Source of the DNA: Candidatus Parcubacteria bacterium
GTDB taxonomy: Bacteria; Patescibacteriota; Patescibacteriia; Patescibacteriales; UBA12075
Assembly: GCA_002869165.1 (NCBI GenBank)
Contig: PKTK01000006.1
Coordinates: 2,127 to 66,126 of the forward strand
Direction of reading: 5' to 3'
Length of the DNA: 64,000 nt
A program made the position numbers and the translations under genes. Shown here one piece after another: positions 8,083 through 29,419 of the stretch. Under the pieces are notes generated by a model. The model did no database searches, was not told where the DNA came from, and saw only the letters and a program-made list of their open reading frames with translations. How positions within the stretch are numbered: position 1 is the first letter of the stretch; each line of letters starts with the position of its first letter.

Positions 8083-8124
8083 AGCCGATGTCGGGATTTG
8101 AACCCGATACCCCTACCTTACCAT
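8083..8124 (-). tRNA. 3' half of a split tRNA-Thr(GGU), copy B (anticodon loop to discriminator)
   Basis: The minus strand reads ATGGTAA-GGTAG-GGGTA-TCGGG-TTCAAAT-CCCGA-CATCGGC-T. It pairs perfectly with the 5' half at 29382..29419. No upstream 5' half is adjacent. Confidence 0.8.
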
Positions 8125-8322
8125 CAATTTGGCTTGTAAAATTGTGCCGAATTTAATTCAATGTTAGGAGATTTCTTCCCGATAAAGGGAGGAAAAAGGG
8201 GCGGTAGCTTGGACCACTTTTAGCGCTACCAAACGACTAAATAAAAATCCTAATTAAAGGATTTCTGTGGGATAATAATGCTATTAATAGTAAGCTATAT
8301 TACATAAAAAACTATATCATAA

Positions 8323-9267
8323 CTATAAAAAATTATCAAGAGAAAGCTTCTCGACATCCCCCCGCATAGCCTTTGTTGGCAAACAACGTAAATAAGTGGC
8401 TGTCATCCGGATATCCAAGTGCCCCATCAACTGCTTAAGCTTGGCCACATCTGTGCCACTATTAAGTAAATTGACAGCATAGGTATGGCGTAAGATATGG
8501 ATATGAAAATTAAAATCCAATTCCTCCCTGATCTTATCGATCGTATGTTTAAAGCCGTTCACAGTGAATGCTGTGTCTTTATTTCCGGACACAAACAGAT
8601 TAGGTGTTTTATATCCTTTTTGTTTTCTAGCTTGTAAATAATCTTTCATGATCTCCATGATCTTTGTATTGAGCGGTACTACTCGCTGTCTTTTTGACTT
8701 GGAGGTTGATGCTCGCACTGTCAGTTCTCGCTTATCGGGATTAAAATCACTAACCATTAACCCAAGCAACTCCCCTCTCCGTAATCCGGTGTACAGTGGT
8801 AGAGTTACTAATAGATAATTTCTTTTCCGCACAAAACTATCCTGCCAATCGATTGAATGATTGACTGCAAGAATTAATTTTTCAAGCTTTGCTTTCGAAA
8901 TGTATTTTCGATCTTCGTAATTTACTTGCGGATAAGCCATCTTATCGAAAGGATTTTCCTGAATGTGGCCGTTCACTTTCAACCAATTAAAAAAACGATT
9001 GAACTTTGAGCGATAAGTCGCGACTGTACTGTTCTTTATTCCAAACCTAACTTTACCGCGCCCGACTACCCGCTTTCGTTCATCAAGCTTCTTGAAGAAT
9101 GTTGTCATCACCTCCGGACTCAAGCTATCTAGGCAGATGCCAGGGACTAACTCCAACAATGTGTTGAAGCAGCCCCGGCATCCCCTGATTGTCTCCTCGC
9201 TTAACCTGGAAGAGTAACGGCACTCATTTACATAATCTTCAAATAATTTTTTAATATCTTGATTCAT
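8323..9267 (-). CDS. tyrosine recombinase/integrase (second integrase of the inner element)
   Basis: 314 aa with LYTGLRRGELLGL, HILRHTYAVNLL and GHLDIRMTATYL. It lies about 200 nt from the element end. Confidence 0.85.
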   Translation of the reverse strand: MNQDIKKLFEDYVNECRYSSRLSEETIRGCRGCFNTLLELVPGICLDSLSPEVMTTFFKKLDERKRVVGRGKVRFGIKNSTVATYRSKFNRFFNWLKVNGHIQENPFDKMAYPQVNYEDRKYISKAKLEKLILAVNHSIDWQDSFVRKRNYLLVTLPLYTGLRRGELLGLMVSDFNPDKRELTVRASTSKSKRQRVVPLNTKIMEIMKDYLQARKQKGYKTPNLFVSGNKDTAFTVNGFKHTIDKIREELDFNFHIHILRHTYAVNLLNSGTDVAKLKQLMGHLDIRMTATYLRCLPTKAMRGDVEKLSLDNFL

Positions 9268-9270
9268 AAA

Positions 9271-10923
9271 TTAAAATTGTATCTCGTCAACATTTATTTC
9301 ATCGGTTACAAATTCTTTTTCATTGTCAAATTCATAATAACTATTTCTAATTTCTTCATTGATAAAATCGGCATCCATCCAGCCGTCCTTAACCAACAAT
9401 GAACCACCGGTGAAAGAATTTATGTCAACCTTCGCCCTAGTCTTGTCGGCGATATTGACCCATCTCTTACCTCCTTGCTTATAATGGCTTACGCTTATTC
9501 CTAGTTTTTCTAGATTAGGAATAATTTCTTCCATCTTTCTTACCAACCAACTTGAATTCTTCGGCCAATACTTGTCTCGCATATAATCAAGGTCGTATTG
9601 CTTTGCGTTGCTAATCAGCTTTTTGTATATATACTCAGGTGATCCTGTAATTTCGCCAACTTTATCTGACTTAATTAAATTCATAACAGCTACAGCCACC
9701 GGATTTACTTCGACCGCTTTTTCGTTTTGAGTTAATATATTATTTTCATATGCTTGTAAAAAGGCTTCGCCCCCTGTTTTAATTACTTCATTAATTGCAA
9801 AACCCCATTGTGCAAAATCTGCCATGCGTGGATATTTTTTTAATTTTATGCTTGGCTCTATTTTTATTGCCTCAGATGCAATATCAAAACATTCTCCCAG
9901 TATATACGGCTTCATTTTTTCAAACGTACTTTCGATTTCTTTTTCTGTTTTACGTAAACTCTCTGGAATTCTAGAAAGCTTTATGATCACTGACCTGTCT
10001 AACAAATCTGGTTTATTGGCTACACAGTTAACTCCATTTAATCCTAATATGTTCTTGAAGTTAAAGACAACTTCTTCCTTGTCTGTATATAGTTTGCGTT
10101 GTCCCACTCCCTCTCCTGTGCTGGATCTACATAGCTGGTCTGACTGTTCGACAGTTAGATTCGTAATGTTGTCGTAGAACATCGCCCAATTGCTAGCCAT
10201 AGCGATAGTAAAATCCTGCTGTTTCCCTGCTATTGATCTTGTCTTTAGAGTTGATGGATCAATTATTTCTTTTAAAAATCTTGAGGTTGTGGATTTAGAA
10301 GAGCCTTGCTGACCATGCAACACAAGTATCGGATGAGGAAAATCAGGTATAAAGGCACTGACAATAAAAGTCTTTAATAAAATTTCATCATCCCTTGAAC
10401 TAAGATTTATTAGTCTGATAAAATCATCCAGCCCCTTGCCTTGCAATGGTTCTACTTGCGGCTTCTGTGTGTTAAATCGCCTAAATAAAACTGGAGCATC
10501 TTTGATCGCCCATCCATTTTTATCATAGCGTACTGCCTTCCTGCCAAGGTCATACCAAAACACACCCGAACCTTCTTCAGCAACACGCACATAGAGCTTC
10601 TTTGTGTTCTTTGTTTTTAGCCTTGTTTTGGTATCAATTATTTTTACTGCTTTTATTATTGACTCGGTCCCAGGTGGCTTCTTGTCATGTTCATAACACT
10701 GATATAAAACCCAATTCTTAAATGTGTCTGAGTCTAACTCAACAATTTTTCCAGTACTTTGGTCCAGCAATACTTGTAGGGTATTGTTTTCATCTAAAAA
10801 AATATCTAAATTCGCACTCTCAATAATAGTAATAACCTTCCACACCCCCGTTGCATTGTCTTCTTCGTTGAGGATTTCTTCCTCTTCGTAATCACTAGTA
10901 TTTTTATTAATTTCTTTTTCCAT
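9271..10923 (-). CDS. SF3-helicase-like replication ATPase (D5/P4-alpha C-terminal type)
   Basis: 550 aa with Walker A HGQQGSSKST and Walker B-like AMFYDN. A motif-C-like stretch is LNGVNCVANKPDLLDRSVIIKL. Confidence 0.5.
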   Translation of the reverse strand: MEKEINKNTSDYEEEEILNEEDNATGVWKVITIIESANLDIFLDENNTLQVLLDQSTGKIVELDSDTFKNWVLYQCYEHDKKPPGTESIIKAVKIIDTKTRLKTKNTKKLYVRVAEEGSGVFWYDLGRKAVRYDKNGWAIKDAPVLFRRFNTQKPQVEPLQGKGLDDFIRLINLSSRDDEILLKTFIVSAFIPDFPHPILVLHGQQGSSKSTTSRFLKEIIDPSTLKTRSIAGKQQDFTIAMASNWAMFYDNITNLTVEQSDQLCRSSTGEGVGQRKLYTDKEEVVFNFKNILGLNGVNCVANKPDLLDRSVIIKLSRIPESLRKTEKEIESTFEKMKPYILGECFDIASEAIKIEPSIKLKKYPRMADFAQWGFAINEVIKTGGEAFLQAYENNILTQNEKAVEVNPVAVAVMNLIKSDKVGEITGSPEYIYKKLISNAKQYDLDYMRDKYWPKNSSWLVRKMEEIIPNLEKLGISVSHYKQGGKRWVNIADKTRAKVDINSFTGGSLLVKDGWMDADFINEEIRNSYYEFDNEKEFVTDEINVDEIQF

Positions 10924-10929
10924 GTTTTT

Positions 10930-11451
10930 TTATCGAGTAACCATTGTTAAATTATGCACTGACAATAAATGTCCGATACTTAAAGCATCAACATCTTCAG
11001 CTTCACACCTGAGACAATATTCCAACTGAGCTATCCATTTTACTGAATGAGCAAAACAATCGTAACATATGTCAGAACTGTTTTGATTAAACTCTTCAAG
11101 TAAATTATCTAGGTTTTCTAACAAAGCGCCGTCCATATAGTCCATGTTCCAGTCTAAACCATATATCATTTGACCTTCATTGTTTGATTTTTTTCTTACG
11201 TACAAGAAATTATATCCTTTAGAAAAAAGGAAGGCGGCGAAGGCCATGTCCTCAGTTTCAAAATACGTGTCTTGATTTTTTTCTTTTGTCATTTTTTTAA
11301 ATTTAATACTTACCTTTTCATTGTAGTTGTTTATTGCAAGGCTGTCTGTTCTCGCTTCTATATCAGCATGTAAAAAAATAACTGTATTAATATTAGTCCA
11401 AGGATCGCAGTTATTAACAGCGACCAAAAAGCGATATAGTACCACTACCAA
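10930..11451 (-). CDS. hypothetical protein, DUF5659-like core
   Basis: 173 aa. DTYFETEDMAFAAFLFSKGYNFLYV resembles the DUF5659 pattern as I remember it. The true start may be the internal MTKEKNQ. Confidence 0.4.
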   Translation of the reverse strand: MVVVLYRFLVAVNNCDPWTNINTVIFLHADIEARTDSLAINNYNEKVSIKFKKMTKEKNQDTYFETEDMAFAAFLFSKGYNFLYVRKKSNNEGQMIYGLDWNMDYMDGALLENLDNLLEEFNQNSSDICYDCFAHSVKWIAQLEYCLRCEAEDVDALSIGHLLSVHNLTMVTR

Positions 11452-13087: not shown

Positions 13088-14173
13088 TTATTTTTTAGCT
13101 ATTAACTTTGCCAAATCATCTTCCTTCTCATATCCCCGCAATTCACCGAATAACATACCAAGGCGGTAACTAACCCCGGAAGACATTAAGCGCCAGTTGG
13201 TGGTTTCAAGTGTCTTCTTGATAGCTTTTTCCAGTTGCTTTTTGCTGTCATATTCTTCTCGGCCTGACTTTGCATCTCTGATATTAAACGGTGCTATAAC
13301 ATGACGACCTTGCTCGGGCGTCTTCAGTTCCAATTTGATATACCCCTGTTCTTCCAGCTTGGATACAAGCAGATTCTCTAGCTCAACAATGGATAACTTT
13401 TTTATCGAAGCCACTTTATCGTACAGCTCTTGATTCGCCTCCCTATCTTCAATCTTCCTTAAAACTTTTTGCAACTGATCTGTTCTTATTTTGAAACTTA
13501 AATATTCCTGCCCAGCTTCATCTGATATACAGAACCGATCTCTATCTGTTTCATAATTCGAATCTACTTCTTCGGGCTTGCTTTCCATATCATACTCATA
13601 AGTTTTAATTACTCCATGCTCAGGACATTTGTAATAAGTAGTTATTTTTTCTTCTTCACGTTTATGTGTTTTATCCAAAACTTTACCGCACTTGTCGCAA
13701 TGCTCCGGCGTAGCTTTAAACTCTTCACCGGTATGAAAAAAGCCTCGACCTTTTCGACAACTACCACATCTAAAAATAAATAAAACCTTATCTTCAGTAT
13801 TCAAATTCCCGATATGCAGTGTCTTTGTCTCAACTGACATTTCCTTGTTACATGCTAAACAAAAAATGCCAACCGGAGTTTTGGCACTTTCCATGAGCTC
13901 ATCTCGCTTCTTGTCTTCGTCCATCCATTGACGAATTGTTTCGCTTTTTTCCAAATACCTTTCCCCAGTTTCAAAATATAAACCCAGGTCCTTAAACAAT
14001 CCGTTGGTGGCACGTTTAAATTCATCCTCATTCTTATTACCGGTAATTTTGGTATCACAATCCAAAAAGAACTTTTCCTTTATCCGCATTAAATCAACAG
14101 TCATCCGATCATACCTGTCAATATAATATTGTTCTGACTTTAAATGCTTCTCCATACTATTACTAGTCTTCAA
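13088..14173 (-). CDS. multi-zinc-ribbon protein, unknown function
   Basis: 361 aa with several CxxC pairs (CLACNK, CGSCRK, CDKCGK, KCPEHG). Its start overlaps the FtsK-like gene's stop by 11 nt. Confidence 0.55.
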   Translation of the reverse strand: MKTSNSMEKHLKSEQYYIDRYDRMTVDLMRIKEKFFLDCDTKITGNKNEDEFKRATNGLFKDLGLYFETGERYLEKSETIRQWMDEDKKRDELMESAKTPVGIFCLACNKEMSVETKTLHIGNLNTEDKVLFIFRCGSCRKGRGFFHTGEEFKATPEHCDKCGKVLDKTHKREEEKITTYYKCPEHGVIKTYEYDMESKPEEVDSNYETDRDRFCISDEAGQEYLSFKIRTDQLQKVLRKIEDREANQELYDKVASIKKLSIVELENLLVSKLEEQGYIKLELKTPEQGRHVIAPFNIRDAKSGREEYDSKKQLEKAIKKTLETTNWRLMSSGVSYRLGMLFGELRGYEKEDDLAKLIAKK

Positions 14174-15749
14174 TATTAAACCCAGTAACTCCGTCTTGTT
14201 TTTGAATAATGTTAACTAATTTTTCTGCTTCTGAATATGTAATATTGATTCTTCTTTGTACTGCACTTGGCGAATAACACCTTTCTTCGTACAAAATCTT
14301 TTTAACAATCGCCAGCTTTTCTTCGTCGGTTATATTATCCGGTAGTTTTTTAGCTTTACAGCTATGAGTATAATCAATAATTCCCATGTTCAAAAGATAA
14401 TCAATCAAACGGCAAGCGGTTACGTGATCTATACTAAGCTTGTCATTCAAATCAGCCGCTCGAAGTTCTCTATTCTTCTTGGCTAATACCTCCGCTTTAT
14501 CAAATAAATCCTTGTTAACTTCAGATAATTCTTTTCTGTCGATATAATTGCCAGCTTTAACCGCTTCAATTATTTTTTCTATTTCATTTTCACTTATAAA
14601 AAATCCTTGAAAGCGCCAAGGGGTATTCTCAATTTTCTCAATCTTAACCTTATCACCGGCAACAATCTTTTTCCCCTTTGGTAATTTGATATCAATCTCG
14701 CTTTGTTTACAAAGCATGTCACCTTGACCTAATAGTTTTTCTCCTCCGCTCTCACCTAGAATTGTTATTGAATCTTGTTCTGAAGCTGTACTAAATGAAA
14801 TCTGAACCAAAAATTCAGCTACCATTTCTTTGGGCATTATCTGTTTCGGATCTGGCCTTGATGTACCAAGTATAATATTAAAACCAACCGCTCCTCCCAT
14901 ACTAGCAATCCTAGTTATCTGTTTAAGAAAATAATCATGATCAGCTACCATCAAATCAGAAAATTCATCAATCATTATTATATAGCAGGGCCACTTCTCC
15001 TCGGCAAATAAATTATAATTAGCAATATTACTAATTCCTTTTGCTTGAAGTATATCAAAGCGCCTGTCTATCTCCTCCATGCACCAATCAAACGCTTTCC
15101 TAGCTTCCTCAGCATTAACCATAACTGGAAATTTTAAATGCTGTAGTCCTTTATAAGTATATAATTCAACCCTCTTAGGATCAATCAGAATCAAACCAAG
15201 TTCTTCGGGCTTGCACTGGAATAATAAACTGGCAATTACTGTATGGAAAAAATTAGATTTACCTGAATTCGTAGCACCGCCAATTATTATGTTCCCCCTC
15301 TGTCTTATATCGACCACATCGTTAGACATATTATCATCTCGGCCAATTGGCAATCCCACCTTACCTGTCAGTTCATCAAACACGCAATCTTCTAAAGCGT
15401 CCTTCAGTCCTACTAATGCTTTCTTCTTATTGGGAATTTCTATCACTATGTATTTTTCTAGTCCAGAAAACAAGCTAACTCTTACCGGATAACTCTTCAG
15501 GGCTAAGCTTAGATTGTTCGTAAAATCTTTTTGTTTATAGTTTTCGTAGTTCTCAAATATAATATACTTAAAAACCGATACTCTCGGCGCAACATCAAAG
15601 CTAGTATAGATAACTCCGACACCAGCGGATTCAAACTCTTTCTCGATTATCTTTTTAGATTCTTCAAAATCAACACCAACCGGCTTCTCCTTATAATCTC
15701 GCAATAAATCTAGGGGTAATAAAAAATTACTAGGTTCTTTTTGTATCAT
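14163..15749 (-). CDS. FtsK/SpoIIIE-family DNA translocase-like ATPase (no TM segment)
   Basis: 528 aa with Walker A GGATNSGKSNF and Walker B YIIMIDEFSDL. The C-terminal helical segments resemble winged-helix DNA-binding repeats. Confidence 0.75.
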   Translation of the reverse strand: MIQKEPSNFLLPLDLLRDYKEKPVGVDFEESKKIIEKEFESAGVGVIYTSFDVAPRVSVFKYIIFENYENYKQKDFTNNLSLALKSYPVRVSLFSGLEKYIVIEIPNKKKALVGLKDALEDCVFDELTGKVGLPIGRDDNMSNDVVDIRQRGNIIIGGATNSGKSNFFHTVIASLLFQCKPEELGLILIDPKRVELYTYKGLQHLKFPVMVNAEEARKAFDWCMEEIDRRFDILQAKGISNIANYNLFAEEKWPCYIIMIDEFSDLMVADHDYFLKQITRIASMGGAVGFNIILGTSRPDPKQIMPKEMVAEFLVQISFSTASEQDSITILGESGGEKLLGQGDMLCKQSEIDIKLPKGKKIVAGDKVKIEKIENTPWRFQGFFISENEIEKIIEAVKAGNYIDRKELSEVNKDLFDKAEVLAKKNRELRAADLNDKLSIDHVTACRLIDYLLNMGIIDYTHSCKAKKLPDNITDEEKLAIVKKILYEERCYSPSAVQRRINITYSEAEKLVNIIQKQDGVTGFNIED

Positions 15750-16706: not shown

Positions 16707-19070
16707 TTATTTCTTTTTTTTCTTATCATTTTCTTTTTTCTCAATTTTCTCTGATATCGGACTACTTGCATCAAACATATTCCACATTTCAAATGTAAAC
16801 CAATCAATATCTGTAATTTCAACTCTTTCGATTAACCAATGTTCTGCTCTTTTTAAAATATCGGCCTCTCGCCTATTTTTATAAAATTCATCACGCAATT
16901 GCATTACCTCAACTCTAACAAGCTCTTTCTTAGGCGAAGTCGGCTCCACCCCTTCCGGTAAATTTGAAAAATAATACTCTTCAAATTTTTGTTGAAATAC
17001 TTTTAGATTCACTTTCAAATTCTCGACTATGTCTTTCTTTTTATTTTTCAATGCAAGAATACCAATGTAACATGCTCGTTCCATAATCCTTGGTTCAGTA
17101 TAACCATATTTAGAATCAGACTCTTTCTCAAACATATCCATGGCTAATTTAAATAAAATTTCAATAGCATCTTCAGCTAACTTATCTTGATTGACATCAA
17201 AAGATATTATCACAATAACCGAAACTGCTTCTACTAATTTATCAAAATGTAAATTGGATTCAATTTTTTTTACTTCATGTGTGAACCAGGACGGCTGATG
17301 CAAATACCAACCAAGAATCCTTATCAGCTCTTCTTTTTGTTTATTCCATTTTTCATCCTTAATACAATTAACCATTAGACAAGAAATATCAATAATAGTT
17401 TTGGCAAAAGTTTCAACTAAAGCATGGTCTGCTGTTTTAATTTTTTCCGATATCTCACGAAGACAACGACGATATTCCTCAATTAGACGGACAAAAGTCA
17501 ACTGCGTATTATCTCTTTTATCATTTTTTTCTTTTTGTGCAATCTGATATAGAACATTTGCTAAATGAGAAACCCTATAAAATATTGAGTCCAACTCGAC
17601 GGAGGCATAAATATCTTGTATGCTTTTTGTTCTTATATTTAAAAATACAAAAAGAGTTATAGAACTAATATGATCAAAGTAATTTCTCAAATAAAGCCTC
17701 CTATCTGTAATGCTCTTCAGAACTAAAGCTTGCAATATAATATCGTAAACTTTAATCACTTCCTTCCAAACAACATCAAGTCGATTTGAAATACAATGAA
17801 AAGCGATTTTATCTAAAATATTATAAACAGAATATAAGTCTTGTTCACAACCGTTAGCAATCATCACTGGGATTATTTCTTGATATGCTCGCACTCCTTG
17901 AAACATTGCTTCCATATTATTATTTTTCACCGCACTAACCAATAATGAATCTAGGTATCCCCTGCATTGTGAAAAAATTGGATTGCTTCTTTGTCTGGGA
18001 CCAACATATTTAATATTTTGAGCATTTATAGCTAGGCTTTTCAATATGTTTATTATATGAGTTACGCCTACGCTATCATTTTTATTAATATAAAACTCTC
18101 CCCTAGAAACAAAGTTCTCTAAGTTGGGCGTAAGGAAACTCTGTGAATCGCTCACGCCAACCCAAATAACATCAGCTGAGGGAACCACCAATGACGACTC
18201 ACTCCTTAAGCTAAAATACTTTAATATAATTTTATAAGCAGTTGTTAATGAATTTCTCGCCATTTTCTTTTCTTGAGAATTATAAAGCTTGTCGTGGAAA
18301 TCAAAAAGATAATCTAGTCTATTGTTAATATCTGAAAAATAAGATTGAAATCCCCTGTAGGCGGTCGCCTCTGCTAAACTCTTATCAATAGGCTCACCTG
18401 ATTCACTAGGTTTTGAAGAATACAAGACTGCAACCTCGCTAGCTAACTTCTTTATTTTATTTAAATATTCATAACTACTACTTTCTATAATTTTTAAATT
18501 ATTATTAGGTTTTATTTTTTCTCTTATTCTTCTAAACAAAAAATATAGCAACCAAAAAACAAGACCAACAACAATCAACGAACCTTGAGCGAGAAAGTTT
18601 AAAGTTTCTTTACTAAAAATATTCGAAGAAGATGTAAAGATTATTGCTAGTGAAAAAAATGCAAAAATAAAAAACGTAATCACCCAATATATTGCAGATT
18701 GAAACTTGTCTTTAGCTACTAAATCAAAAAACCCAGCAGATGATCGCTGGGCCGCATTTTGAATTAATAATATAGTTAAGGAGAAAACTATTGCTAATGC
18801 GCTTCCAAACATTGCGCCACTAGCGGTAAAAAATCTAATACCTCCTTCTGAAAGAATGGAGCCATTAGCTAGCTTTAAAATATAAAATGATATTATTATA
18901 ATCAAAGTAAAATATACTATAGATAGAACTGCGAAAGAATAACGATGTATGTATTTATTATACAAGTGCAAAAACAAAGTCTTTATTTTAAACTTTAAAA
19001 ATAAATAATAATAGACAATGATTTTTTTTACTTTACCAAACGCATTAGTAATATTCTTTAATATATTCAT
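16707..19070 (-). CDS. 787-aa membrane protein, unknown function, coupled to hsdR
   Basis: The N-terminal 180 aa or so carry several TM helices, followed by a helical soluble region of about 600 aa and a K-rich tail. The ATG at 19068-19070 overlaps the hsdR 3' end by 26 nt. Confidence 0.6.
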   Translation of the reverse strand: MNILKNITNAFGKVKKIIVYYYLFLKFKIKTLFLHLYNKYIHRYSFAVLSIVYFTLIIIISFYILKLANGSILSEGGIRFFTASGAMFGSALAIVFSLTILLIQNAAQRSSAGFFDLVAKDKFQSAIYWVITFFIFAFFSLAIIFTSSSNIFSKETLNFLAQGSLIVVGLVFWLLYFLFRRIREKIKPNNNLKIIESSSYEYLNKIKKLASEVAVLYSSKPSESGEPIDKSLAEATAYRGFQSYFSDINNRLDYLFDFHDKLYNSQEKKMARNSLTTAYKIILKYFSLRSESSLVVPSADVIWVGVSDSQSFLTPNLENFVSRGEFYINKNDSVGVTHIINILKSLAINAQNIKYVGPRQRSNPIFSQCRGYLDSLLVSAVKNNNMEAMFQGVRAYQEIIPVMIANGCEQDLYSVYNILDKIAFHCISNRLDVVWKEVIKVYDIILQALVLKSITDRRLYLRNYFDHISSITLFVFLNIRTKSIQDIYASVELDSIFYRVSHLANVLYQIAQKEKNDKRDNTQLTFVRLIEEYRRCLREISEKIKTADHALVETFAKTIIDISCLMVNCIKDEKWNKQKEELIRILGWYLHQPSWFTHEVKKIESNLHFDKLVEAVSVIVIISFDVNQDKLAEDAIEILFKLAMDMFEKESDSKYGYTEPRIMERACYIGILALKNKKKDIVENLKVNLKVFQQKFEEYYFSNLPEGVEPTSPKKELVRVEVMQLRDEFYKNRREADILKRAEHWLIERVEITDIDWFTFEMWNMFDASSPISEKIEKKENDKKKKK

Positions 19071-22011: not shown

Positions 22012-22012
22012 A

Positions 22013-23197
22013 TTAAAATATTGAATTAATTATATTAGTATTTATTTTTTTCACATCACTATAATAATCAATTAAATTTATAATTTTACTATCAATATCA
22101 TTGATAAAGTCAGTAATTCTTTCTTGTTCCTTTATTGGTGGCATTAAAAGGGGAAATTTTTTAATACTTTTTTCCTTAATTGCAGTAATACCAGTGGTTC
22201 CTACAGTATATTTTTTAATCAAATATTTATATTCCATTGAATTAAACTTGTGAAAAAGAAAATTTGTATTTACATCTTTATCTTTATTTCTAATAACCAA
22301 AACAAAGCTATCAGCGAAGTAACCATTATCAATATTGAACAAACAAGTTCTGCCCAAAGTTCCTTGTCCACCTGTATTAAATAGAATATCGCCATTTTGA
22401 AGCATTTTTTCTTTAACATTATTAAAATCAATATTTATCTTAGCTATCCTTTCCGCTTTTACACCTTCTGGAAATACCGCTCCCGATGGGATCAACTTAT
22501 ATTTTCCGTTTGAACTCTTTTCCGCGTTCACTCCTTTAAACCATTTAATTTCAAATGAACCCAGAACCCCTGTTTTCCAATTTGATGGAGTATTATTTGT
22601 ATACTTACCCTTCGCTAGATTATCATAACCAATCAATAATAATTTCTGTGAAACAACGTCTTTATATGTCTTTAAGCTGTTAATGCAATTTAAAGTGTTT
22701 TCTCGCAAATCGTCTACAGATTTTATTAATTCTAAAAAATCTTTTTGCTGCTTTATGGGTGGCAATAAAAAATTTTGTTTTGAAAGAATGTTCCATTTTA
22801 TGGTTGGTGACAATGACCCCTCCGAAATATCAATTGCTCTATGCATAAAACTATCAGAGTGTAAAAAAAATGGAAATAATTCTGGTAAGATAACATTTGA
22901 CTTTGCTCGTAAAACCATAGAATGTGCAGAACAAATACCATTAAAAGTTGCTATTGCGGCTTTCCTTTGATATGCTCTTCGTTTGCCAAAAATAACATCT
23001 CCTTTATAAATTTTCAACTTCGTCCCAATGACATCAGAAGGATGCCCGTGCCTCTTAATGTGGATTGAATTAGAATCTAAATGTTCAAGCCCAACATAAA
23101 TCTCTGATTCACTTTCGATCGGTTCTACTCTTTCAGAAATATTCTCTGAAATATCATTAAATCTATATTTGTTCCAATTCTGTTTATTTATTTTCAT
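22013..23197 (-). CDS. hsdS: type I R-M specificity subunit
   Basis: 394 aa with two half-repeats, each ending in the conserved spacer helix (LLPPIKQQKDF... and LLMPPIKEQERI...). Confidence 0.85.
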   Translation of the reverse strand: MKINKQNWNKYRFNDISENISERVEPIESESEIYVGLEHLDSNSIHIKRHGHPSDVIGTKLKIYKGDVIFGKRRAYQRKAAIATFNGICSAHSMVLRAKSNVILPELFPFFLHSDSFMHRAIDISEGSLSPTIKWNILSKQNFLLPPIKQQKDFLELIKSVDDLRENTLNCINSLKTYKDVVSQKLLLIGYDNLAKGKYTNNTPSNWKTGVLGSFEIKWFKGVNAEKSSNGKYKLIPSGAVFPEGVKAERIAKINIDFNNVKEKMLQNGDILFNTGGQGTLGRTCLFNIDNGYFADSFVLVIRNKDKDVNTNFLFHKFNSMEYKYLIKKYTVGTTGITAIKEKSIKKFPLLMPPIKEQERITDFINDIDSKIINLIDYYSDVKKINTNIINSIF

Positions 23198-24641
23198 AAT
23201 TAAATATATTATTAATTTCAGATTTAATACTGTTTGATTTTTTTTTCCATTCTTTAATAAATTTTTTTATGTCAATTTCTTTGCTATAGTTTTTATAATT
23301 TCCAACGTTTGAGATATATAACGATATTGTAAGATTTGAATCGAACTTTAAAATTTCATCGATACTTACAATCTTCGCAAATCCTTCAATGTCCATATAA
23401 TTTTTATATGCTTTATATATTTTTGAAATATTTATATCTGTTAGGTAGCTAAGTCCATTAAAATTTTCTACATCGTTTATAGCATTAATGAAAAAAATAT
23501 TGTTTTTTTGCTTTTTTATTTTGTTATTTTTACAAATAAGCAAACAAGCTTCCATAGGAGAGTTGTAAAACAAATTTGGACCTAAACCTATTACAGCTTC
23601 AATCAAGTCAGCCTCAATTAATTTTCTTCTGATTTCTTTTTCTTGATCTCTAAATAATATTCCGTGAGGCCAAAGCACTACTGACCGACCATATTTTTTA
23701 TCCGAACTCTTTAATATATGCTGTTGAAAAGCATAGTCTGCGCACCCCTGAGGTGGAGTACCAAACATATTTCTACCATAAGGATCATGCTCAAAAGAAT
23801 TTCTATCCCAACGCTTAATCGAGTAAGGTGGATTAGCAAGTATTACATTAAACTTTTTAAGTTCATCGTTTTCTATAAAAGCTGGGTTTTTAAGTGTATC
23901 CCCTCTATCAATTTGAAAATCTTCAATCCCATGCATAAACATATTCATCCTAGCTATTGAAGATGTTATTAGATTTATTTCTTGACCATATAGTTTTAAC
24001 GAACGAAATTCTTTACCCTGTCTTTTTAACTCAAGAGCACAATTCAAAAGCATACCTCCTGAACCACAGGTTGGATCATAAACACTTTCTCCAGGTTTTG
24101 GATCCATTAATTTTGTCATTAATTGCACTACTGTTCTGTTTGTATAAAATTCAGCAGCTGTGTGACCGCTGTCATCTGCGAATTTCTTAATTAAAAATTC
24201 ATATCCATCGCCCAGTTTGTCATCAGGTACATTTTGAATTGTTAACTTTTTTTGAGAAAAATGTTCTATCAGATCAATTAATATTTCATCAGATAGCCTT
24301 TGCTTATTAGTCCATGCGGCATCACCAAAAATGCCATACAACACATCCTTGTTTGTCTTTTCAATAGTCTCCATGGCTTTCTGTATCGCCATTCCTATAT
24401 TTTTACTTATCCGTCTGATGTCTTTCCAGTGAGATCCTTCAGGTATTTTAAATCGATGATATTCAGCATAATCATTTCCAGTCTCTTTTTCAGATAACTC
24501 TTTTTCTTCGTCAAAGACATCGCATATACGTTTGTAAAAAAGTAACGGGAATATATACTGTTTATAATCACCAGGATCAATTACTCCTCGCAAAAGAGTT
24601 GCCGCGCCCCATAAATAATTTTCTAATTCATTTTGTTTCAT
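23184..24641 (-). CDS. hsdM: type I R-M methyltransferase subunit, paralog 2
   Basis: 485 aa with an HsdM N-terminal pattern (YIFPLLFYKRI), motif I DPTCGSGGML and motif IV NPPYS. It has EFYTNR where the paralog has EFYTPR. Confidence 0.9.
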   Translation of the reverse strand: MKQNELENYLWGAATLLRGVIDPGDYKQYIFPLLFYKRICDVFDEEKELSEKETGNDYAEYHRFKIPEGSHWKDIRRISKNIGMAIQKAMETIEKTNKDVLYGIFGDAAWTNKQRLSDEILIDLIEHFSQKKLTIQNVPDDKLGDGYEFLIKKFADDSGHTAAEFYTNRTVVQLMTKLMDPKPGESVYDPTCGSGGMLLNCALELKRQGKEFRSLKLYGQEINLITSSIARMNMFMHGIEDFQIDRGDTLKNPAFIENDELKKFNVILANPPYSIKRWDRNSFEHDPYGRNMFGTPPQGCADYAFQQHILKSSDKKYGRSVVLWPHGILFRDQEKEIRRKLIEADLIEAVIGLGPNLFYNSPMEACLLICKNNKIKKQKNNIFFINAINDVENFNGLSYLTDINISKIYKAYKNYMDIEGFAKIVSIDEILKFDSNLTISLYISNVGNYKNYSKEIDIKKFIKEWKKKSNSIKSEINNIFNYENK

Positions 24642-26131
24642 AGTAGGTCAAACTTTTTTAATTGTTTTTTAAAATATTTTTCAGAATCCCACATCTTTTG
24701 TATTGTTATATTTGCCTGCTTTTTTACATCGTCTATTTTAGGTAAAAAATCTTCGATTTCTTTTTCTATATATAATGGAATGCTCAAACTATAATCGTTA
24801 TCCTTGACTTCTTTTAGGCTGGCAATATGTACATAATTTTTTACTTCCGCATATTTATCGTACCATTTATAAATTTGTATAATATGTTTTTTTTCTAAAA
24901 AATTTTGTGCTCGTCCAGTTTTCATTTGCTCACTAGCATCAATAAAGATTATTTTATTAATTTTATTTCTCACTTTCTGTTTTCTTAAAACAATAATACA
25001 TGGAGCAAGGGTAGTACCATAAAATATATTAGACCCTAAACCAATCACTGCTTCAATTAAATCATTCTGAATAATTGATTTGCGTATTTTACCCTCCTTC
25101 CCTTCTCTAGTAAGGGCTCCCTGAGGAAGAACCACTGCCATTCTGCCTACGATTGATTCCATGGAACTAATCATATGTTGTACCCAGGCATAATCCCCGT
25201 TCGAATCATTGGGAACTCCAAATAAATTCCTTCCAAATGGATCGGGCTCCCACTTTTTTGAACCCCACTTCTTCAATGAAAAAGGTGGATTAGCAACGAC
25301 ACAATTAAACTTTGCTAATTTGTCACCATCAAAAAAAGCTGGGTCTCTTAAAGTATCTCCTCGTATAATATTAAAATCTTCAATCCCATGCAAAAACATA
25401 TTCATCCTCACAATGGTTGAAGTAGTCAAGTTCTTTTCCTGACCATAAAGCTTTAAGGTCCTTGCGTCTTTACCAGATTCTTTAATGTGATGACTAGCCT
25501 CTAAAAGCATGCCGCCAGTACCACAAGCAGGATCATAAACCTTATCCCCCTCCTTGGGATCAAGAATGTTTATCATCAAACTAACCACATTTCTTGGTGT
25601 ATAAAACTCTCCTGCTTTTTTGTTTGTTAAATCTGCGAAATGTTTTATCAAATATTCATATGCCTGGCCCAACATATCAGGCTCTACATTTTGATTTGTT
25701 AATTCATATTTAGAAAAATGCTCGATCAAATCAATCAATAATTCGTCTGATAATTTTTCCTTATTACTCCATTGAGTATCACCAAAAATACCATATAAAA
25801 ATTCCTGATTCGTTTTTTCGATTTCTCTAAAAGCATATTGAAGCTTCTGTCCAACATTTATAGTTGTTTCCCTGACATCACGCCAATGACATCCTTCGGG
25901 AATCGTAAATCTATGAAATTCTGGTAATGTTGCATATTCCTCATCTCCGCCTGACTCCTTTAAAGCTTGCTTATATTCTTCTTCGTATACATCTGATATA
26001 CGTTTATAAAATAAAAGTGGAAATATATATGCCTTAAAATCAGCAGCATCTACTGGTCCTTTTAAAATCCAAGCAGCCTTAGCTAAGTACTGTTCAAGTT
26101 GTGATAAAGATATTTGTGTATCCTTAGGCAT
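24638..26131 (-). CDS. hsdM: type I R-M methyltransferase subunit, paralog 1
   Basis: 497 aa with YIFPLLFYKRI, GEFYTPR, DPACGTGGML and NPPFS. It overlaps paralog 2 by 4 nt. Confidence 0.9.
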   Translation of the reverse strand: MPKDTQISLSQLEQYLAKAAWILKGPVDAADFKAYIFPLLFYKRISDVYEEEYKQALKESGGDEEYATLPEFHRFTIPEGCHWRDVRETTINVGQKLQYAFREIEKTNQEFLYGIFGDTQWSNKEKLSDELLIDLIEHFSKYELTNQNVEPDMLGQAYEYLIKHFADLTNKKAGEFYTPRNVVSLMINILDPKEGDKVYDPACGTGGMLLEASHHIKESGKDARTLKLYGQEKNLTTSTIVRMNMFLHGIEDFNIIRGDTLRDPAFFDGDKLAKFNCVVANPPFSLKKWGSKKWEPDPFGRNLFGVPNDSNGDYAWVQHMISSMESIVGRMAVVLPQGALTREGKEGKIRKSIIQNDLIEAVIGLGSNIFYGTTLAPCIIVLRKQKVRNKINKIIFIDASEQMKTGRAQNFLEKKHIIQIYKWYDKYAEVKNYVHIASLKEVKDNDYSLSIPLYIEKEIEDFLPKIDDVKKQANITIQKMWDSEKYFKKQLKKFDLL

Positions 26132-26696: not shown

Positions 26697-26700
26697 AATT

Positions 26701-27210: not shown

Positions 27211-27219
27211 GACAAGACT

Positions 27220-28035: not shown

Positions 28036-28038
28036 AAA

Positions 28039-28932
28039 CTACATATTATTTAGTGGATGCTTGATGATTTGACCTCTTAAATGCTCTGCGCTTGCTGATA
28101 AATAGATGGTTGTTGTCTTAATATCAGAGTGCCCCATCATTCTAGACAAGGAATAGATATCACATCCCCCTTCAAGCATAAGTGTGGCAAAGGTATGTCT
28201 AAGCTTATGACTAGAGAACTTTATACCAGAAGCTTCCTTTATCTTCTCAATCAAACGTTTTAAACCTATCTTTGTAAAACCCATATCCCTGTTTAAAGAA
28301 GTAAAAAACTCCGGACAGGTCTTTTTAAGTCTCGTTCTTTCACGCAAGTATGTTTTTAGTATTTCCGCCAAGCGGTAGTTCATAGGAATAATTCTATCTT
28401 TACTCCCTTTTCCTTGTCTTACAAATATTGTTAAGTTTTCCAGATCAACATCAGCAAACTTTAAATTCAATAGTTCTTGTCGCCTCAGCCCGGCGAAAAT
28501 AAAGGTGGCAAATATTGCATGGTTTCTATATCTAAGAAATGTATAGGGGTAAGGATAATTATAAGCTACCTCCAAGAGCCGAATCGCATCCTGTTTGGTT
28601 AGCTTGGGTGGTAAAGATTTTGTTAGCTTAGGAACTTCTATGTCCTCTATCGGGTTGAAAGATATATGCTTTTCCTTGATACACCAAGTAAAGAAAACAT
28701 TAAGAGTGTTATGGTAGCTAATAAAGGTAGCGGGTTTCCATTTGTATTTTGTTCTCCCGGTAACGAAGAAAGCCTTAACTCTAGAATCATCTAGCTGAGA
28801 CATGCGCCTAATTTTTGTACGGTTACAAAAAATCTGTACCACTTGGTTATAGCGATATGTAGTATCCGGAGACAAACCCCGAATATATTTAGCATGATCA
28901 CAGAACTGTTGAACTAATATTTTTATATCCAT
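28039..28932 (-). CDS. tyrosine integrase, tRNA-adjacent (paralog of 7149..8042)
   Basis: 297 aa with HKLRHTFATLMLEGG...GHSDIKTTTIYL. It lies immediately downstream of the tRNA-Thr copy C terminator. Confidence 0.9.
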   Translation of the reverse strand: MDIKILVQQFCDHAKYIRGLSPDTTYRYNQVVQIFCNRTKIRRMSQLDDSRVKAFFVTGRTKYKWKPATFISYHNTLNVFFTWCIKEKHISFNPIEDIEVPKLTKSLPPKLTKQDAIRLLEVAYNYPYPYTFLRYRNHAIFATFIFAGLRRQELLNLKFADVDLENLTIFVRQGKGSKDRIIPMNYRLAEILKTYLRERTRLKKTCPEFFTSLNRDMGFTKIGLKRLIEKIKEASGIKFSSHKLRHTFATLMLEGGCDIYSLSRMMGHSDIKTTTIYLSASAEHLRGQIIKHPLNNM

Positions 28933-28960: not shown

Positions 28961-28972
28961 ACTTTTTCTTTG

Positions 28973-29251
28973 AGCCGAAACCGGGACTTGAACCCGGGAC
29001 CCCTTCCTTCGTTTACACCCTATTTTATATAACACATATATAGGGGCTAGACTGTATCTCAGACATATCCCTTCTTATCGGGACTTAGTCTCTCTTGTCA
29101 GTCGTTCGGGCGTATTGTTAATTGACGCCACGGTCTTAACCTTGTGTCAGGTCTTTAACCGTTATTCGAGATTCGATATCAGGTTTCCCTGATAAAGGGC
29201 AAGAGACAAACGTCTCACCATGGAAGTGCTCTACCACTGAGCTATTTCGGC
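28973..29251 (-). tRNA. tRNA-Thr(GGU), copy C, interrupted by a 207-nt intron
   Basis: Exon 1 (29251->29217) is GCCGAAA-TA-GCTC-AGTGGTA-GAGC-A-CTTCC-ATGGT. Exon 2 (29009->28973) is AA-GGAAG-GGGTC-CCGGG-TTCAAGT-CCCGG-TTTCGGC-T. All stems are Watson-Crick and no CCA is encoded. Confidence 0.8.
29010..29216 (-). ncRNA. group I-like self-splicing intron in the anticodon loop (between nt 36 and 37)
   Basis: The 5' exon ends in U and the intron ends in G. A P1-like hairpin forms as GGT|GAGAC-GTTT-GTCTC-TT-GCC, placing a U-G pair at the splice site. A P2-like hairpin is TATCAGG-GAAA-CCTGATA. GTCAATT and AGAGACTAAGTC resemble conserved group I core segments. Its size is similar to known bacterial tRNA introns of about 200 nt. 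Confidence 0.6.
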
Positions 29252-29271
29252 ATGTTTTAATTGTACAAAAT

Positions 29272-29296
29272 GATGTCCTTGATGTCCATGACGTCC
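29272..29296 (-). repeat. tandem GGACRTC-type repeats (cluster 3)
   Basis: The minus strand reads GGACGTCAT-GGACATCAA-GGACATC, between att junction B and tRNA copy C. Confidence 0.5.
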
Positions 29297-29381
29297 AGAG
29301 CCCGCGACCACTTTTGACATGGAGATGGTCACTACCTATACTTTCTTAGCTAGCCTTAGCTCAAACCACTAGACCACTTCT

Positions 29382-29419
29382 TTACCATGGTAGTGCTCTA
29401 CCAAGTGAGCTACATCGGC
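29382..29419 (-). tRNA. 5' half of the split tRNA-Thr(GGU), copy B
   Basis: The minus strand reads GCCGATG-TA-GCTC-ACTTGGTA-GAGC-A-CTACC-ATGGTAA, then non-tRNA sequence (AGAAGTGGTCTAGTGG...). Confidence 0.8.

Follow-up and report, generated by a model that had tools for sequence, protein, structure and literature searches.

The question raised by this locus is whether a tRNA gene split by mobile DNA has simply been lost or has been replaced. The locus lies downstream of a conserved TPR gene in a Candidatus Parcubacteria chromosome and was analysed within a stretch of 64,000 nt (hereafter, the window). A previous, sequence-only reading of this DNA proposed that some 21.3 kb of mobile DNA interrupt the anticodon loop of one tRNA-Thr(GGU) gene, here designated B, and leave the gene broken. 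Our analysis upholds the interruption and offers another view of its outcome: the locus is very probably a stack of two islands of the same family, each of which entered the anticodon loop of a tRNA-Thr(GGU) gene by site-specific recombination of the tyrosine-recombinase type and brought a replacement gene.

The interrupted tRNA-Thr(GGU) gene

Both pieces of B were recovered at the ends of an island that we named E1, which measures 21,257 bp between the two halves:

29382..29419, minus strand: orphan 5' half of tRNA-Thr(GGU) B, read 29419..29382 as GCCGATGTAGCTCACTTGGTAGAGCACTACC-ATGGTAA and followed by non-tRNA sequence; attL of E1, core ATGGTAA at 29388..29382; B is the replacement tRNA of an older island, E2
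8083..8124, minus strand: attR of E1, made up of the core ATGGTAA (8124..8118) and the 3' half displaced from tRNA-B (GGTAG..CATCGGC T), read 8124..8083 as ATGGTAA-GGTAG-GGGTA-TCGGG-TTCAAAT-CCCGA-CATCGGC-T

Joined in silico (29419..29382 with 8117..8083), the pieces are recognised by ARAGORN as a tRNA-Thr(ggt) of 74 nt, and only the 7-nt loop ATGGTAA is common to both B junctions, as had been proposed. The claimed specificity of the pairing is borne out by a 3 x 3 cross-join with the halves of the two other tRNA-Thr(GGU) genes of the locus, A and C: all Watson-Crick pairs of the acceptor (7/7) and anticodon (5/5) stems form in A/A, B/B and C/C only, and each non-cognate join is 1–3 pairs short.

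The absence of repair by an element-borne 3' segment was likewise confirmed, as the 5' half of B followed by the element arm reaches 14 bits against the Rfam tRNA threshold of 29 and is not reported by ARAGORN. In both islands, the crossover core is the 7-bp ATGGTAA, which comprises the whole anticodon loop. In attB, the two strands of the anticodon stem form a natural inverted repeat around it; in attP, its right-hand neighbour is a decayed version of the tRNA 3' half (AGAAGTGGTC.. or TAAACAGGTC..). The split gene is not rebuilt because this decayed copy no longer pairs with the host 5' half. Neither ARAGORN nor Rfam detected a tRNA gene in the 64-kb window. Two viral-contig scans gave no empty site (an intact B before the left recombinase gene of E2) or circular E1 junction, and a single metagenome scan for them was swamped by generic tRNA-Thr genes.

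Both B halves are intact and the 5' half retains its upstream context, as might be expected of a functional split tRNA whose halves are transcribed apart and joined in trans, as in Nanoarchaeum, the gene thus not being inactivated. We regard this as extremely improbable. Complementary leaders are missing, since the sequence after the 5' half (AGAAGTGGTCTAGTGG..) has no reverse complement before the 3' half (..ACAAGCCAAATTG); conserved att arms and recombinase genes make up the flanks, and a complete cognate gene is supplied nearby. We know of no bacterial precedent for a trans-joined split tRNA.

Element-borne tRNA genes and nested islands

The features of E1 are, from its left to its right end:

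29252..29381, minus strand: left arm of E1, 130 nt, with AAGTGGTC at +3 (29379..29372) and +69 (29313..29306)
29288..29260, minus strand: promoter-like TGGACA-17-TACAAT, ending 9 nt upstream of tRNA-C
29217..29251, minus strand: exon 1 of the element-borne tRNA-Thr(GGU) C (GCCGAAA..CTTCC ATGGT)
29010..29216, minus strand: group I intron, 207 nt, between anticodon base 36 and base 37, splitting the core into ATGGT and AA
28972..29009, minus strand: exon 2 of tRNA-C (AA GGAAG GGGTC CCGGG TTCAAGT CCCGG TTTCGGC TC), then a hairpin and T-run
28039..28932, minus strand: IntL, Xer-like tyrosine recombinase of 297 aa, directly downstream of tRNA-C (Pfam Phage_integrase, 1.7e-30)
19045..26131, minus strand: type I restriction-modification system (two HsdM, HsdS, HsdR)
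14163..15749, minus strand: FtsK/SpoIIIE-type DNA translocase, gamma domain
8323..9267, minus strand: IntR, the other Xer-like tyrosine recombinase of E1 (314 aa), encoded at its right end some 200 nt ahead of attR
8125..8254, minus strand: right arm of E1, with AAGTGGTC at -95 (8219..8212), ending ..CCAAATTG beside the core

No family could be assigned to the ORFs around the FtsK/SpoIIIE-type gene, and no recognisable excisionase was found in E1. Homologues of the left arm occur in three related loci (L001, L198 and L166).

The sequence-only reading had taken C (GCCGAAA/TTTCGGC) for a neighbouring intact copy. In fact, the gene carries an intervening sequence of 207 nt (29216..29010) and is recognised only when this is allowed for or removed (ARAGORN -i: tRNA-Thr(ggt) i(36,207)); spliced in silico, C is a tRNA-Thr(ggt). 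Moreover, it is located inside E1, 130 nt from attL and behind a promoter-like site of its own, and the integrase gene follows directly. C is thus E1's own replacement tRNA-Thr(GGU) and is probably spliced and functional. The same layout recurs in 16 related Thr(GGU) loci, mostly of Patescibacteria, in which a complete tRNA and IntL come immediately after an orphan 5' half. Given the position of C inside the element, its promoter-like site and this recurrence, function therefore appears to be restored by replacement of the whole gene. Of the earlier claim that the target is left broken, the unrebuilt junction stands, but the implied picture, in which the cell keeps a broken gene next to an unrelated paralogue, does not.

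A third 5' half, at 29572..29536, had escaped the previous reading, as had the role of the split B as replacement gene of an older element. The corresponding features are:

29536..29572, minus strand: orphan 5' half of tRNA-Thr(GGU) A (GCCGATA..CTTCC), attL of E2, with the loop/core ATGGTAA at 29542..29536
29420..29535, minus strand: left arm of E2, 116 nt, beginning TAAACAGGTC and with AACGGGTC at about +67
7149..8042, minus strand: IntL of E2, 297 aa counted from ATG, behind a hairpin and T-run (8068..8053)
1..7148, minus strand: rest of E2 within the window (terminase, third recombinase, metallo-beta-lactamase-fold protein, unknowns)
5574..6992, minus strand: lone large terminase, inside this remainder
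4429..5373, minus strand: third recombinase, inside this remainder

The remaining part of E2, roughly 2 kb with its IntR and the 3' half of A, lies outside the window, past position 1. This half (ATGGTAA GGAAG ..TATCGGC; L005 12774-12814) is found on the same contig, about 1,993 nt past window position 1, behind the second IntR and exactly where nesting predicts, and pairs with the 5' half of A at 7/7 and 5/5 positions. The third 5' half, together with its partner past the window start, makes the locus a nested one, A(B(C)), E2 being about 10.3 kb and E1 21,257 bp long. As the split gene came with an earlier island of this type, the insertions at the locus are stacked. E2, with its lone terminase, looks degraded. 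The start of its arm, TAAACAGGTC, is a decayed image of tRNA positions 39-48; the 5' half of A plus this arm gives a weak Rfam tRNA match (17.1 bits, threshold 29). The arm start TAAACAGG[TC]C also follows orphan halves in L011, L014, L015, L017, L008 and L024, and L013 has the variant TAAACAGAGC.

The unrebuilt junction and the undecayed halves could also be expected of plain insertional inactivation, as previously suggested, in which one of several tRNA-Thr(GGU) paralogues was broken and C is an unrelated chromosomal paralogue nearby. This is very unlikely, as C lies between attL and attR and hence inside the element, the arm, tRNA and IntL module also occupies the left end of independent elements, B stands in the same relation to the older E2, and the 64-kb window holds no other tRNA.

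Under the favoured reading of serial integration, E2 would first have split the chromosomal tRNA-A and supplied tRNA-B; E1 would then have integrated at the intact loop of tRNA-B, its attB, and brought in tRNA-C. Instead of rebuilding the target, each island carries a complete tRNA-Thr(GGU) gene with its own promoter; in full, the left arm is followed by the tRNA, a terminator, IntL, the cargo (in many cases defence genes), IntR and the right arm. Two independent elements, L021 (about 7 kb, with CBASS as cargo) and L029 (6.3 kb, from Saccharibacteria), show the same order of parts: 5' half, ATGGTAA, arm, complete tRNA, IntL, IntR, ATGGTAA and cognate 3' half. In L007, L026 and L030, a right arm, the core, a left arm and the tRNA follow one another in a junction resembling attP. 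The distance from the core to the replacement gene is about 115–130 bp in E1/E2 and 130–170 bp in L001 and L002.

As the source is a metagenome contig, the tandem 5' and distant 3' halves might be misjoined strain variants of one tRNA-Thr-integrase locus, and a second assembly (ENA ERZ794999 NODE_264) does show, at its far end, a variant join in the repeat beyond the 3' half of A. Still, we consider such an artefact highly improbable. The half order is perfectly nested, and many unrelated MAGs have the same architecture; the isolate genome of Niastella populi (L026) has only the intron-bearing tRNA adjoining IntL, behind its attP-like junction. A chimeric contig is unlikely because both E1 junctions were reproduced in the second assembly at 22x coverage, possibly from the same reads, with 3894/3894 identical positions in the attL region and one mismatch in 6894 in the attR region.

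Recombinases, putative binding sites and the core-splitting intron

Repeated 8-mers are positioned at about -95, +3 and +69 of the core in each island. In E1, AAGTGGTC at these positions accounts for three of its only four occurrences in 64 kb; in E2, AACAGGTT, AACAGGTC and AACGGGTC take the equivalent places, and L021 and L029 have a similar arrangement. These 8-mers are putative binding sites of the recombinase IntL.

IntL of E1 resembles XerA/C/D in NCBIfam with scores under the cut-offs, and is 62% identical to IntL of E2. We found 2394 relatives, and identity of 55–69% is retained over Patescibacteria, Bacteroidota, Ignavibacteria and Myxococcota. Such unusual conservation could mean an additional resident, non-mobile role. 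In turn, IntR of E1 shares 49% identity with the recombinase preceding the 3' half of A (IntR of E2), and IntR equivalents are located close to attR in L021 and L029. Integration is probably catalysed by IntL, perhaps with IntR as a Xer-like pair. We consider it rather unlikely that the architecture is the same but the enzymology differs, IntL being a conserved resident recombinase of the tRNA-Thr locus (e.g., for array maintenance or resolution) and IntR alone the integrase of the islands. The conservation of IntL across these groups would be unusual for an island integrase, and IntR is more divergent and, in the circular form, is some 200 nt away from the core. Against this, each nested element brought its own IntL copy, IntL of this family immediately follows the tRNA at other tRNAs too, like classical island integrases, and IntR is inverted or fragmented in some elements.

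The group I intron of C, placed inside the 7-bp core, was also overlooked by the sequence-only reading. Its alignment with ten homologues supports a fold with P1 containing the invariant U.G, P2-P9 including the P3 pseudoknot, and omega-G at the end; 96.9% of cells are paired, 28 pairs show double changes and 0/500 shuffles were equal. The intron has no match in Rfam, in line with what PMC13011429 reports for its class. It occurs in Bacteroidota as well (Niastella, L026), and L198 is an E1-like element with an intronless allele of the same tRNA. All intron-bearing Thr genes with clear context are immediately upstream of an IntL gene except in L007, where an IntR precedes the intron-bearing copy and a reverse-strand ORF comes next. 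The predicted self-splicing would restore the loop in the RNA, and the intron may protect C, or the element itself, against further recombination at that loop.

Comparison with known systems

The intron family is already known. Divergent group I introns at position 36/37 of Patescibacteria tRNA-Thr(GGU) were described by Nakagawa et al. (2026, PMC13011429) and with tFind (Williams, 2020, bioRxiv 10.1101/2020.01.27.920355). These introns agree with ours in the tRNA, the insertion site and the similar length, are missed by Rfam RF00028 and are mis-registered by ARAGORN as Arg(GCG) or His; the searched parts of both contain no link of the intron-bearing gene to an adjacent integrase, integrative element or att core.

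As for the recombinases, IntL and IntR resemble XerC/XerD pairs in being small, Xer-like and without an arm-binding domain (best NCBIfam matches XerA, XerC and XerD), in the 7-bp central region and in the use of two different recombinases, encoded here on either side of the site. Yet, all scores are under the equivalog cut-offs, the genes are element-borne and duplicated per element, and the target is a tRNA loop, not dif.

Classical tRNA-gene islands and prophages with anticodon-loop crossover (Islander/TIGER framework; PMC4383910) share with E1 and E2 an integrase gene adjoining the tRNA, a displaced tRNA fragment marking the far end, crossover in the symmetric anticodon stem-loop and tandem arrays at one tDNA. 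In those islands, however, the tRNA 3' segment in attP regenerates the target, whereas here it has decayed into an arm that does not pair, and the islands carry an entire gene instead; the displaced left piece is a 5' half, never reused.

The closest known mechanism is tRNA-dependent lysogeny of the actinobacteriophages Fionnbharth, LeBron, Gaia and others (Guerrero-Bustamante and Hatfull, 2024, PMC10865867). Both systems combine a tyrosine integrase targeting a tRNA gene, junctions without a rebuilt functional tRNA, a compensating element-encoded cognate tRNA of the same anticodon, and near relatives in the same integrase family that use the classical rebuilding mode. In contrast to those phages, the present elements cannot be shown to be phages (restriction-modification and FtsK-like genes in E1, CBASS in L021, and a lone terminase in E2 only), their hosts belong to the Patescibacteria, related recombinases being present in other phyla as well, and the core is exactly the anticodon loop. 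Furthermore, the replacement gene lies near the core and becomes the next target, which leads to nested arrays, attP is flanked by two Xer-like recombinases, and the replacement gene often has a group I intron inside the core. The new features of this locus are that the replacement gene adjoins the attachment site, that the islands are stacked serially, that the recombinases are paired and that the intron splits the core.

A split tRNA-Thr(GGU) gene and its probable replacement copy

We found that the minus strand of the window carries three tandem 5' halves of tRNA-Thr(GGU) genes, at 29572, 29419 and 29251 (genes A, B and C), as well as two 3' halves, near 8100 and 28990. The 5' half of tRNA-B (29419..29382, minus strand) consists of GCCGATGTAGCTCACTTGGTAGAGCACTACC-ATGGTAA and continues into non-tRNA sequence, and the 3' half of B (8124..8083, minus strand) reads ATGGTAA-GGTAG-GGGTA-TCGGG-TTCAAAT-CCCGA-CATCGGC-T. 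The sequence-only reading had taken these two pieces for one tRNA, and their in-silico join was indeed called by ARAGORN as a 74-nt tRNA-Thr(GGU). When all 5' halves were cross-joined with all 3' halves, including a third 3' half from beyond the window, 7/7 acceptor and 5/5 anticodon-stem pairs were obtained in cognate joins only; thus, the match is specific to this pair, as had been proposed. ATGGTAA, the entire anticodon loop, is the only sequence common to the two ends in every case, in agreement with the earlier remark that the 7-nt loop alone is duplicated at the junctions. As for a chimeric contig, a second assembly (ENA ERZ794999 NODE_264) has the two junctions in identical form. A look-up of contigs carrying the IntL genes of islands E2 and E1 (Xer-like tyrosine recombinases encoded just after each island's tRNA) returned no other arrangement, only that of the window again, in two assemblies. 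The splitting of a tRNA gene in its loop with a short core is real.

Island E1 occupies the loop of tRNA-B from 29381 to 8125 (21,257 bp), with core copies at 29388..29382 and 8124..8118 and the displaced 3' half of B at 8117..8083; IntL (28039..28932) and IntR, the second recombinase, at the right end of the island (8323..9267), flank its att sites. Neither E1 junction is a tRNA: the E1 arm (island DNA flanking the core) offers AGAAG, which pairs with the stem strand CTACC at 3/5 positions only, and the 5' half of B plus arm gave no tRNA in ARAGORN and 14.3 bits in Rfam, against a threshold of 29. A split tRNA joined in trans, of the Nanoarchaeum type, was also considered and rejected, as complementary leaders are absent between 29381..29252 and 8254..8125, the 8-mers common to the two segments being direct and not inverted.

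The claim that the gene is split by mobile DNA with a short core stands, but the view that the locus is simply left broken does not, as E1 brings its own tRNA-Thr(GGU), tRNA-C. The latter had been described as a neighbouring intact copy; a tRNA-Thr(GGU) copy is located there, yet it is not a plain gene but one interrupted by a 207-nt insert. With the intron option of ARAGORN off, or with Rfam, no tRNA was detected anywhere in the 64-kb window; with introns allowed, ARAGORN reported tRNA-C as tRNA-Thr(ggt) i(36,207). No other tRNA-Thr(GGU) was found in the 64-kb window or in the 10 kb beyond.

Parts of tRNA-C (ARAGORN, introns allowed)
29251..29217, minus strand: exon 1
29216..29010, minus strand: 207-nt insert after anticodon base 36, i(36,207)
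29009..28972, minus strand: exon 2
Predicted ligated exons: ..CCAUGGUAAGGAAG..

Since no Rfam group I match was obtained for the window, a 900-nt region, the intron alone (E<=10) or seven related loci (gathering threshold), the intron fold was set up by alignment and covariation, using 10 sequences, i.e., the window's copy and nine homologous inserts from related loci. The U.G pair of P1, with U at -1, is invariant at the 5' splice site in 10/10 (columns 10/29), and all ten introns end in G (omega-G) before the AA of exon 2. The fold further comprises P2, with a GAAA cap in the majority of the copies, then P3 to P6, P7 (GACUG/CAGUC), P8 and P9, and covariation in the alignment backs a P3-P9 core with the P3/P7 pseudoknot arrangement. 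It contains 53 pairs with 96.9% of cells paired and compensatory changes in 28 of them; none of 500 shuffles reached the observed values and slid controls remained at <=46% paired. P3 of the window's intron is a compensatory CUC/GAG, as opposed to CCC/GGG in the other copies. These data support a complete group I architecture of the insert, and tRNA-C would presumably be spliced. Introns at position 36/37 of tRNA-Thr(GGU) are already on record from three Patescibacteria genomes and, as that article states, are missed by RF00028 and detected by tFind (Nakagawa et al., 2026; PMC13011429); the window's intron shares with the class described there the lack of an Rfam Intron_gpI match.

Nested islands, their gene content and attachment sites

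The repeated order of tRNA 3' part, terminator and IntL, together with the three tandem 5' halves, raised the suspicion of nesting, and therefore the same contig (Ga0102541_1282597, 97 kb, annotated as Candidatus Parcubacteria) was examined past the window start. The 3' half of A, absent from the window, was found about 1,993 nt past window position 1 (12774-12814 of L005, the extended contig) and reads ATGGTAA-GGAAG-GGGTC-TCGAG-TTCAAGT-CTCGA-TATCGGC. It is directly preceded by a 318-aa recombinase, 49% identical to IntR of E1. As the predicted 3' half thus lies past a second recombinase, the order is nested, 5'A [5'B [tRNA-C] 3'B] 3'A, or in full 5'A [arm 5'B [arm tRNA-C IntL ... IntR arm] 3'B IntL ... 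IntR arm] 3'A. E2, the older island, is about 10.3 kb long excluding E1, sits in the loop of tRNA-A and carries tRNA-B at its left end; tRNA-B would be its replacement gene, in the same role as tRNA-C for E1. Another ATGGTAA, which follows the recombinase at 4429..5373 and lies near 4395, was dismissed as the partner of A: no tRNA sequence follows it, and it is probably a chance occurrence.

Past the 3' half of A and its terminator, at a distance of about 130 nt and some 2.2 kb from window position 1, we noticed a decayed fourth tRNA 3' remnant (..GGGGGTGCCCTTCTCAGGGCTTCAAGTCTAGGGTTTCGGC; L005 12940-12990), in a region where the ENA assembly has a variant join. Its acceptor strand TTTCGGC would pair with GCCGAAA, and no partner 5' half was found upstream of A; it is probably a relic of a still older event. 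Past this remnant, tRNA-Tyr and then type IV pilus genes mark ordinary chromosome.

Genes and other features of E1 and E2 (all listed genes on the minus strand)
Directly after tRNA-C and before IntL of E1, minus strand: hairpin with T-run
28039..28932, minus strand: IntL of E1, 297-aa tyrosine recombinase
After IntL of E1, minus strand: small ORFs, one ArdC-like, one with a topoisomerase zinc ribbon
19045..26131, minus strand: type I restriction-modification genes of E1, two HsdM, one HsdS and one HsdR
14163..15749, minus strand: FtsK/SpoIIIE-type translocase of E1, with ORFs of no known family on both sides
8323..9267, minus strand: IntR of E1, tyrosine recombinase, ~200 nt before the 3' half of B
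Immediately past 3'B, minus strand: second hairpin with T-run
7149..8042, minus strand: IntL of E2, 62% identical to IntL of E1
Within 4429-6992, minus strand: large terminase of E2, 472 aa (PHROG 9, 4e-58)
4429..5373, minus strand: third recombinase of E2, divergent tyrosine recombinase, 314 aa

Neither Pfam nor PHROGs revealed phage structural or lysis genes in E1, and among its ORFs without family nothing phage-like or conjugative was detected with them except the FtsK-like protein. In E2, the large terminase is the sole recognisable phage gene, and the genes after it include ORFs without family; candidate identities of E2 are degraded prophage, satellite and composite. A homologue of its third recombinase comes right after IntL in one related locus (L011). 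The tandem HsdM genes (497 and 485 aa, window 23184-26131, minus strand) share a 192-nt repeat (24174-24365 and 25631-25822; 74% identity), which suggests a duplicated or two-specificity type I system. Outside the islands, in the stretch that separates the TPR gene from the 5' half of A, lies a near-perfect 20-bp AT-rich hairpin (29590-29636) with a bidirectional-terminator score and spurious microRNA matches in Rfam.

Predicted attachment-site junctions
attB-B: ..GCACTACC-ATGGTAA-GGTAGGGG..
attP-E1: ..CCAAATTG-ATGGTAA-AGAAGTGG..
attB-A: ..GCACTTCC-ATGGTAA-GGAAGGGGTCTCGAG..
attP-E2: ..GGGTTGTTG-ATGGTAA-TAAACAGG..

To the right of the core, the element sequences of E1 (AGAAGTGGTC) and E2 (TAAACAGGTC) resemble tRNA positions 39-48 (GGAAGGGGTC), with pairing to the 5' strand of the anticodon stem lost; because of this resemblance, 5' halves plus arm receive weak tRNA-like scores of 14-17 bits in Rfam. 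Such a decayed tRNA-like arm suggests descent from a classical attP that may once have held a real 3' half. The window contains four copies of the sequence AAGTGGTC, including one each at -95, +3 and +69 of the E1 core, these three on the same strand. At the same positions E2 has AACAGGTT, AACAGGTC and AACGGGTC, and L021 and L029, the two related loci with both element ends visible, are similar; we regard these repeats as candidate recombinase-binding sites. A promoter-like TGGACA-17-TACAAT, kept in the arm of the related locus L001, is positioned at the end of the E1 arm, 9 nt before tRNA-C.

Exact-match scans of viral contigs yielded 0 matches each for intact tRNA-B and the E1 attP junction. 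A single degenerate scan of metagenome contigs for attB, attP, attL and attR, whose pattern also fitted the very common CTTCC/GGAAG stem so that the matches listed were largely ordinary tRNA-Thr genes, gave two further attL sites (L166 and L198) and no empty B site among the matches listed. No circular junction was recovered in the viral-contig and IntL-contig searches or among the metagenome matches listed. We infer the mobility of the islands, the recombinase acting on them and the essentiality of tRNA-C. The anticodon arm of tRNA-Thr(GGU), GCACTTCC-ATGGTAA-GGAAGGGGTC, was met unchanged across a very broad set of metagenome contigs (loci L087-L206). The element family therefore has a nearly universal attB, and this may account for the spread of IntL across phyla.

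Related loci and the intron in the target loop

At E<1e-20, IntL has 2394 relatives; over 100 are 62-69% identical and mostly from Patescibacteria, and relatives at 55-68% identity are encoded by Bacteroidota (Niastella, Mucilaginibacter), Ignavibacteria and Myxococcota (one genome per species). In most loci with an upstream tRNA called by ARAGORN, the tRNA ends 40-120 nt before IntL; Thr(GGU) is the commonest type, and Lys, Met, Thr(UGU), Val, Ile and Pro also occur. In 16 Thr(GGU) loci, the window among them, a complete tRNA is immediately preceded by an orphan 5' half, ATGGTAA (TTGGTAA in L024) and an arm, and the terminal gene contains the intron in 8/16 and lacks it in 8/16. Only in L021 and L029 are both element ends visible within the fetched 20 kb. 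The former element is about 7 kb long, with CBASS cargo and IntR near its right end; the latter, from Saccharibacteria, is 6.3 kb long, and a compensatory change distinguishes its outer halves (GCTGCCT/AGGCAGC) from the inner gene (GCTGCTT). L001, syntenic with the window (TIM, aldolase, TPR gene), possesses a single orphan half, an arm like that of E1 and a tRNA lacking the intron. LOOT RNA (Rfam RF03000, 70-90 bits) is present, at a few kb downstream from IntL, in L002 (15030-15153), L021 (12568-12698) and L047 (15073-15204), and none was found in the window.

Upstream of family members beside other tRNAs (Lys, Met, Thr-UGU, Val, Ile, Pro) no orphan 5' halves were found, and thus the mode in which a whole gene is supplied seems confined, in this sample, to the Thr(GGU) clade, of which it looks like a derived state. 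In other phyla, a junction of IntR, tRNA 3' half and IntL is common, which is either the classical target-regenerating form or a tandem junction. Six loci from Bacteroidota, Myxococcota and Ignavibacteria (L010, L019, L035, L037, L045 and L028, at about 9600-10000) have a gap of ~380 nt between IntR and IntL with just a tRNA 3' part and AACAGGTC-like repeats, the gap of L035 and L045 holding the Lys(UUU) loop plus 3' half. Here the same two recombinases stand in the classical arrangement, which regenerates the target.

The loop is uninterrupted and followed by the arm in all 17 orphan 5' halves of the first locus set and in the later L008 and L024, and every disrupted gene was therefore intronless. 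The data suggest that the intron may protect the attachment site; as a tentative reading, which we hold at low confidence, the intron in element-borne tRNA-Thr would be a DNA-level mask of the att site. The split ATGGT|AA would remove the sole sequence that the recombinase needs, and self-splicing would restore the loop in RNA. If so, the next island would be blocked from displacing the resident one, and the element's recombinase from joining attP with a perfect attB ~170 bp away in its own tRNA.

On a 1.9-kb metagenome contig (L198, 1650-1876), an orphan 5' half with the sequence of exon 1 of tRNA-C is followed by an E1-like arm and an intronless tRNA identical to spliced tRNA-C as far as the contig reaches; this element lineage thus exists with and without the intron. 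Among chromosomal contigs, those of Bacteroidota-type MAGs and of the isolate Niastella populi showed attP-like junctions (L007 6260-6581 and 9740-9967; L026 9560-9963; L030 1220-1422) consisting of right-arm-like sequence, ATGGTAA or TTGGTAA, left arm and complete tRNA-Thr, with no 5' half in front. The first L007 junction, which follows an IntR, and that of L026 precede an intron-bearing gene, and that of L030 precedes an intronless one. Insertion at an attL core and integration of the element by other means are candidate origins. In L072 (6296-6572), the order is IntR, directly thereafter the 3' two-thirds of the intron (P4 onwards), exon 2 and IntL; here the break in an intron-bearing tRNA-Thr seems to have fallen within the intron and not in the loop. 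These single cases fit the loop being lost as a target, with insertions beside or within the intron; deletion or integration elsewhere would be alternative histories of these loci. The intronless origin of the orphan halves, the intronless allele in L198, the apparent insertions next to the loop in L007 and L026 and the break within the intron in L072 would fit an arms race of introns and integrases at one tRNA loop. They would, besides, describe a two-recombinase family of defence islands, widespread and unnamed, that Patescibacteria share with other phyla.

Meaning and comparison with known systems

The arrangement accounts for a tRNA gene that looks broken and for a window in which standard tools detect no tRNA, in genomes whose completeness is judged by tRNA counts. 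Every new island supplies the target for the following one, which turns one tRNA locus into a self-renewing landing pad that grows as a nested array. The islands carry restriction-modification, CBASS and other defence cargo, and those of this family can be delimited through orphan tRNA-Thr 5' halves and their cognate 3' halves. The locus also links two separately reported things, the divergent group I intron of Patescibacteria tRNA-Thr and the integrase family. Our literature search on Patescibacteria islands, integrases and tRNA-Thr gave nothing relevant that links these elements.

IntL and IntR differ from the housekeeping recombinases XerC, XerD and XerA, as both fall under the NCBIfam equivalog cut-offs: IntL scores 184 against 220 for XerA, 164 against 335 for XerC and 163 against 330 for XerD, and the scores of IntR are lower still. 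Like classical target-regenerating tRNA islands, E1 has an integrase gene adjoining the att site, a core repeat and a displaced tRNA fragment, but its arm rebuilds no functional tRNA at the junction.

The closest likeness is to tRNA-dependent lysogeny, characterized by a short core, no reconstruction and a cognate element-borne tRNA, which was demonstrated genetically in mycobacteriophages and whose relatives with the same integrase family use either mode, rebuilding or tRNA-dependent (Guerrero-Bustamante and Hatfull, 2024; PMC10865867). E1 likewise has a 7-bp core with neither junction a tRNA, and encodes the same isotype and anticodon, tRNA-C being Thr(GGU) after intron removal. Compensation by an element tRNA has been shown experimentally only for actinobacteriophages; the same logic is met here in non-phage islands of ultra-small bacteria. 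In contrast to tRNA-dependent lysogeny, E1, L021 and L029 are islands without phage genes and E2 has the large terminase only, the core is exactly the anticodon loop, two Xer-like recombinases flank attP, and half of the replacement genes have a group I intron cutting the core. Furthermore, the replacement gene adjoins attP and is the next target, hence the nested arrays. The locus is tRNA-dependent integration, of a known kind, with an already described intron; the nested two-recombinase island family is previously undescribed.
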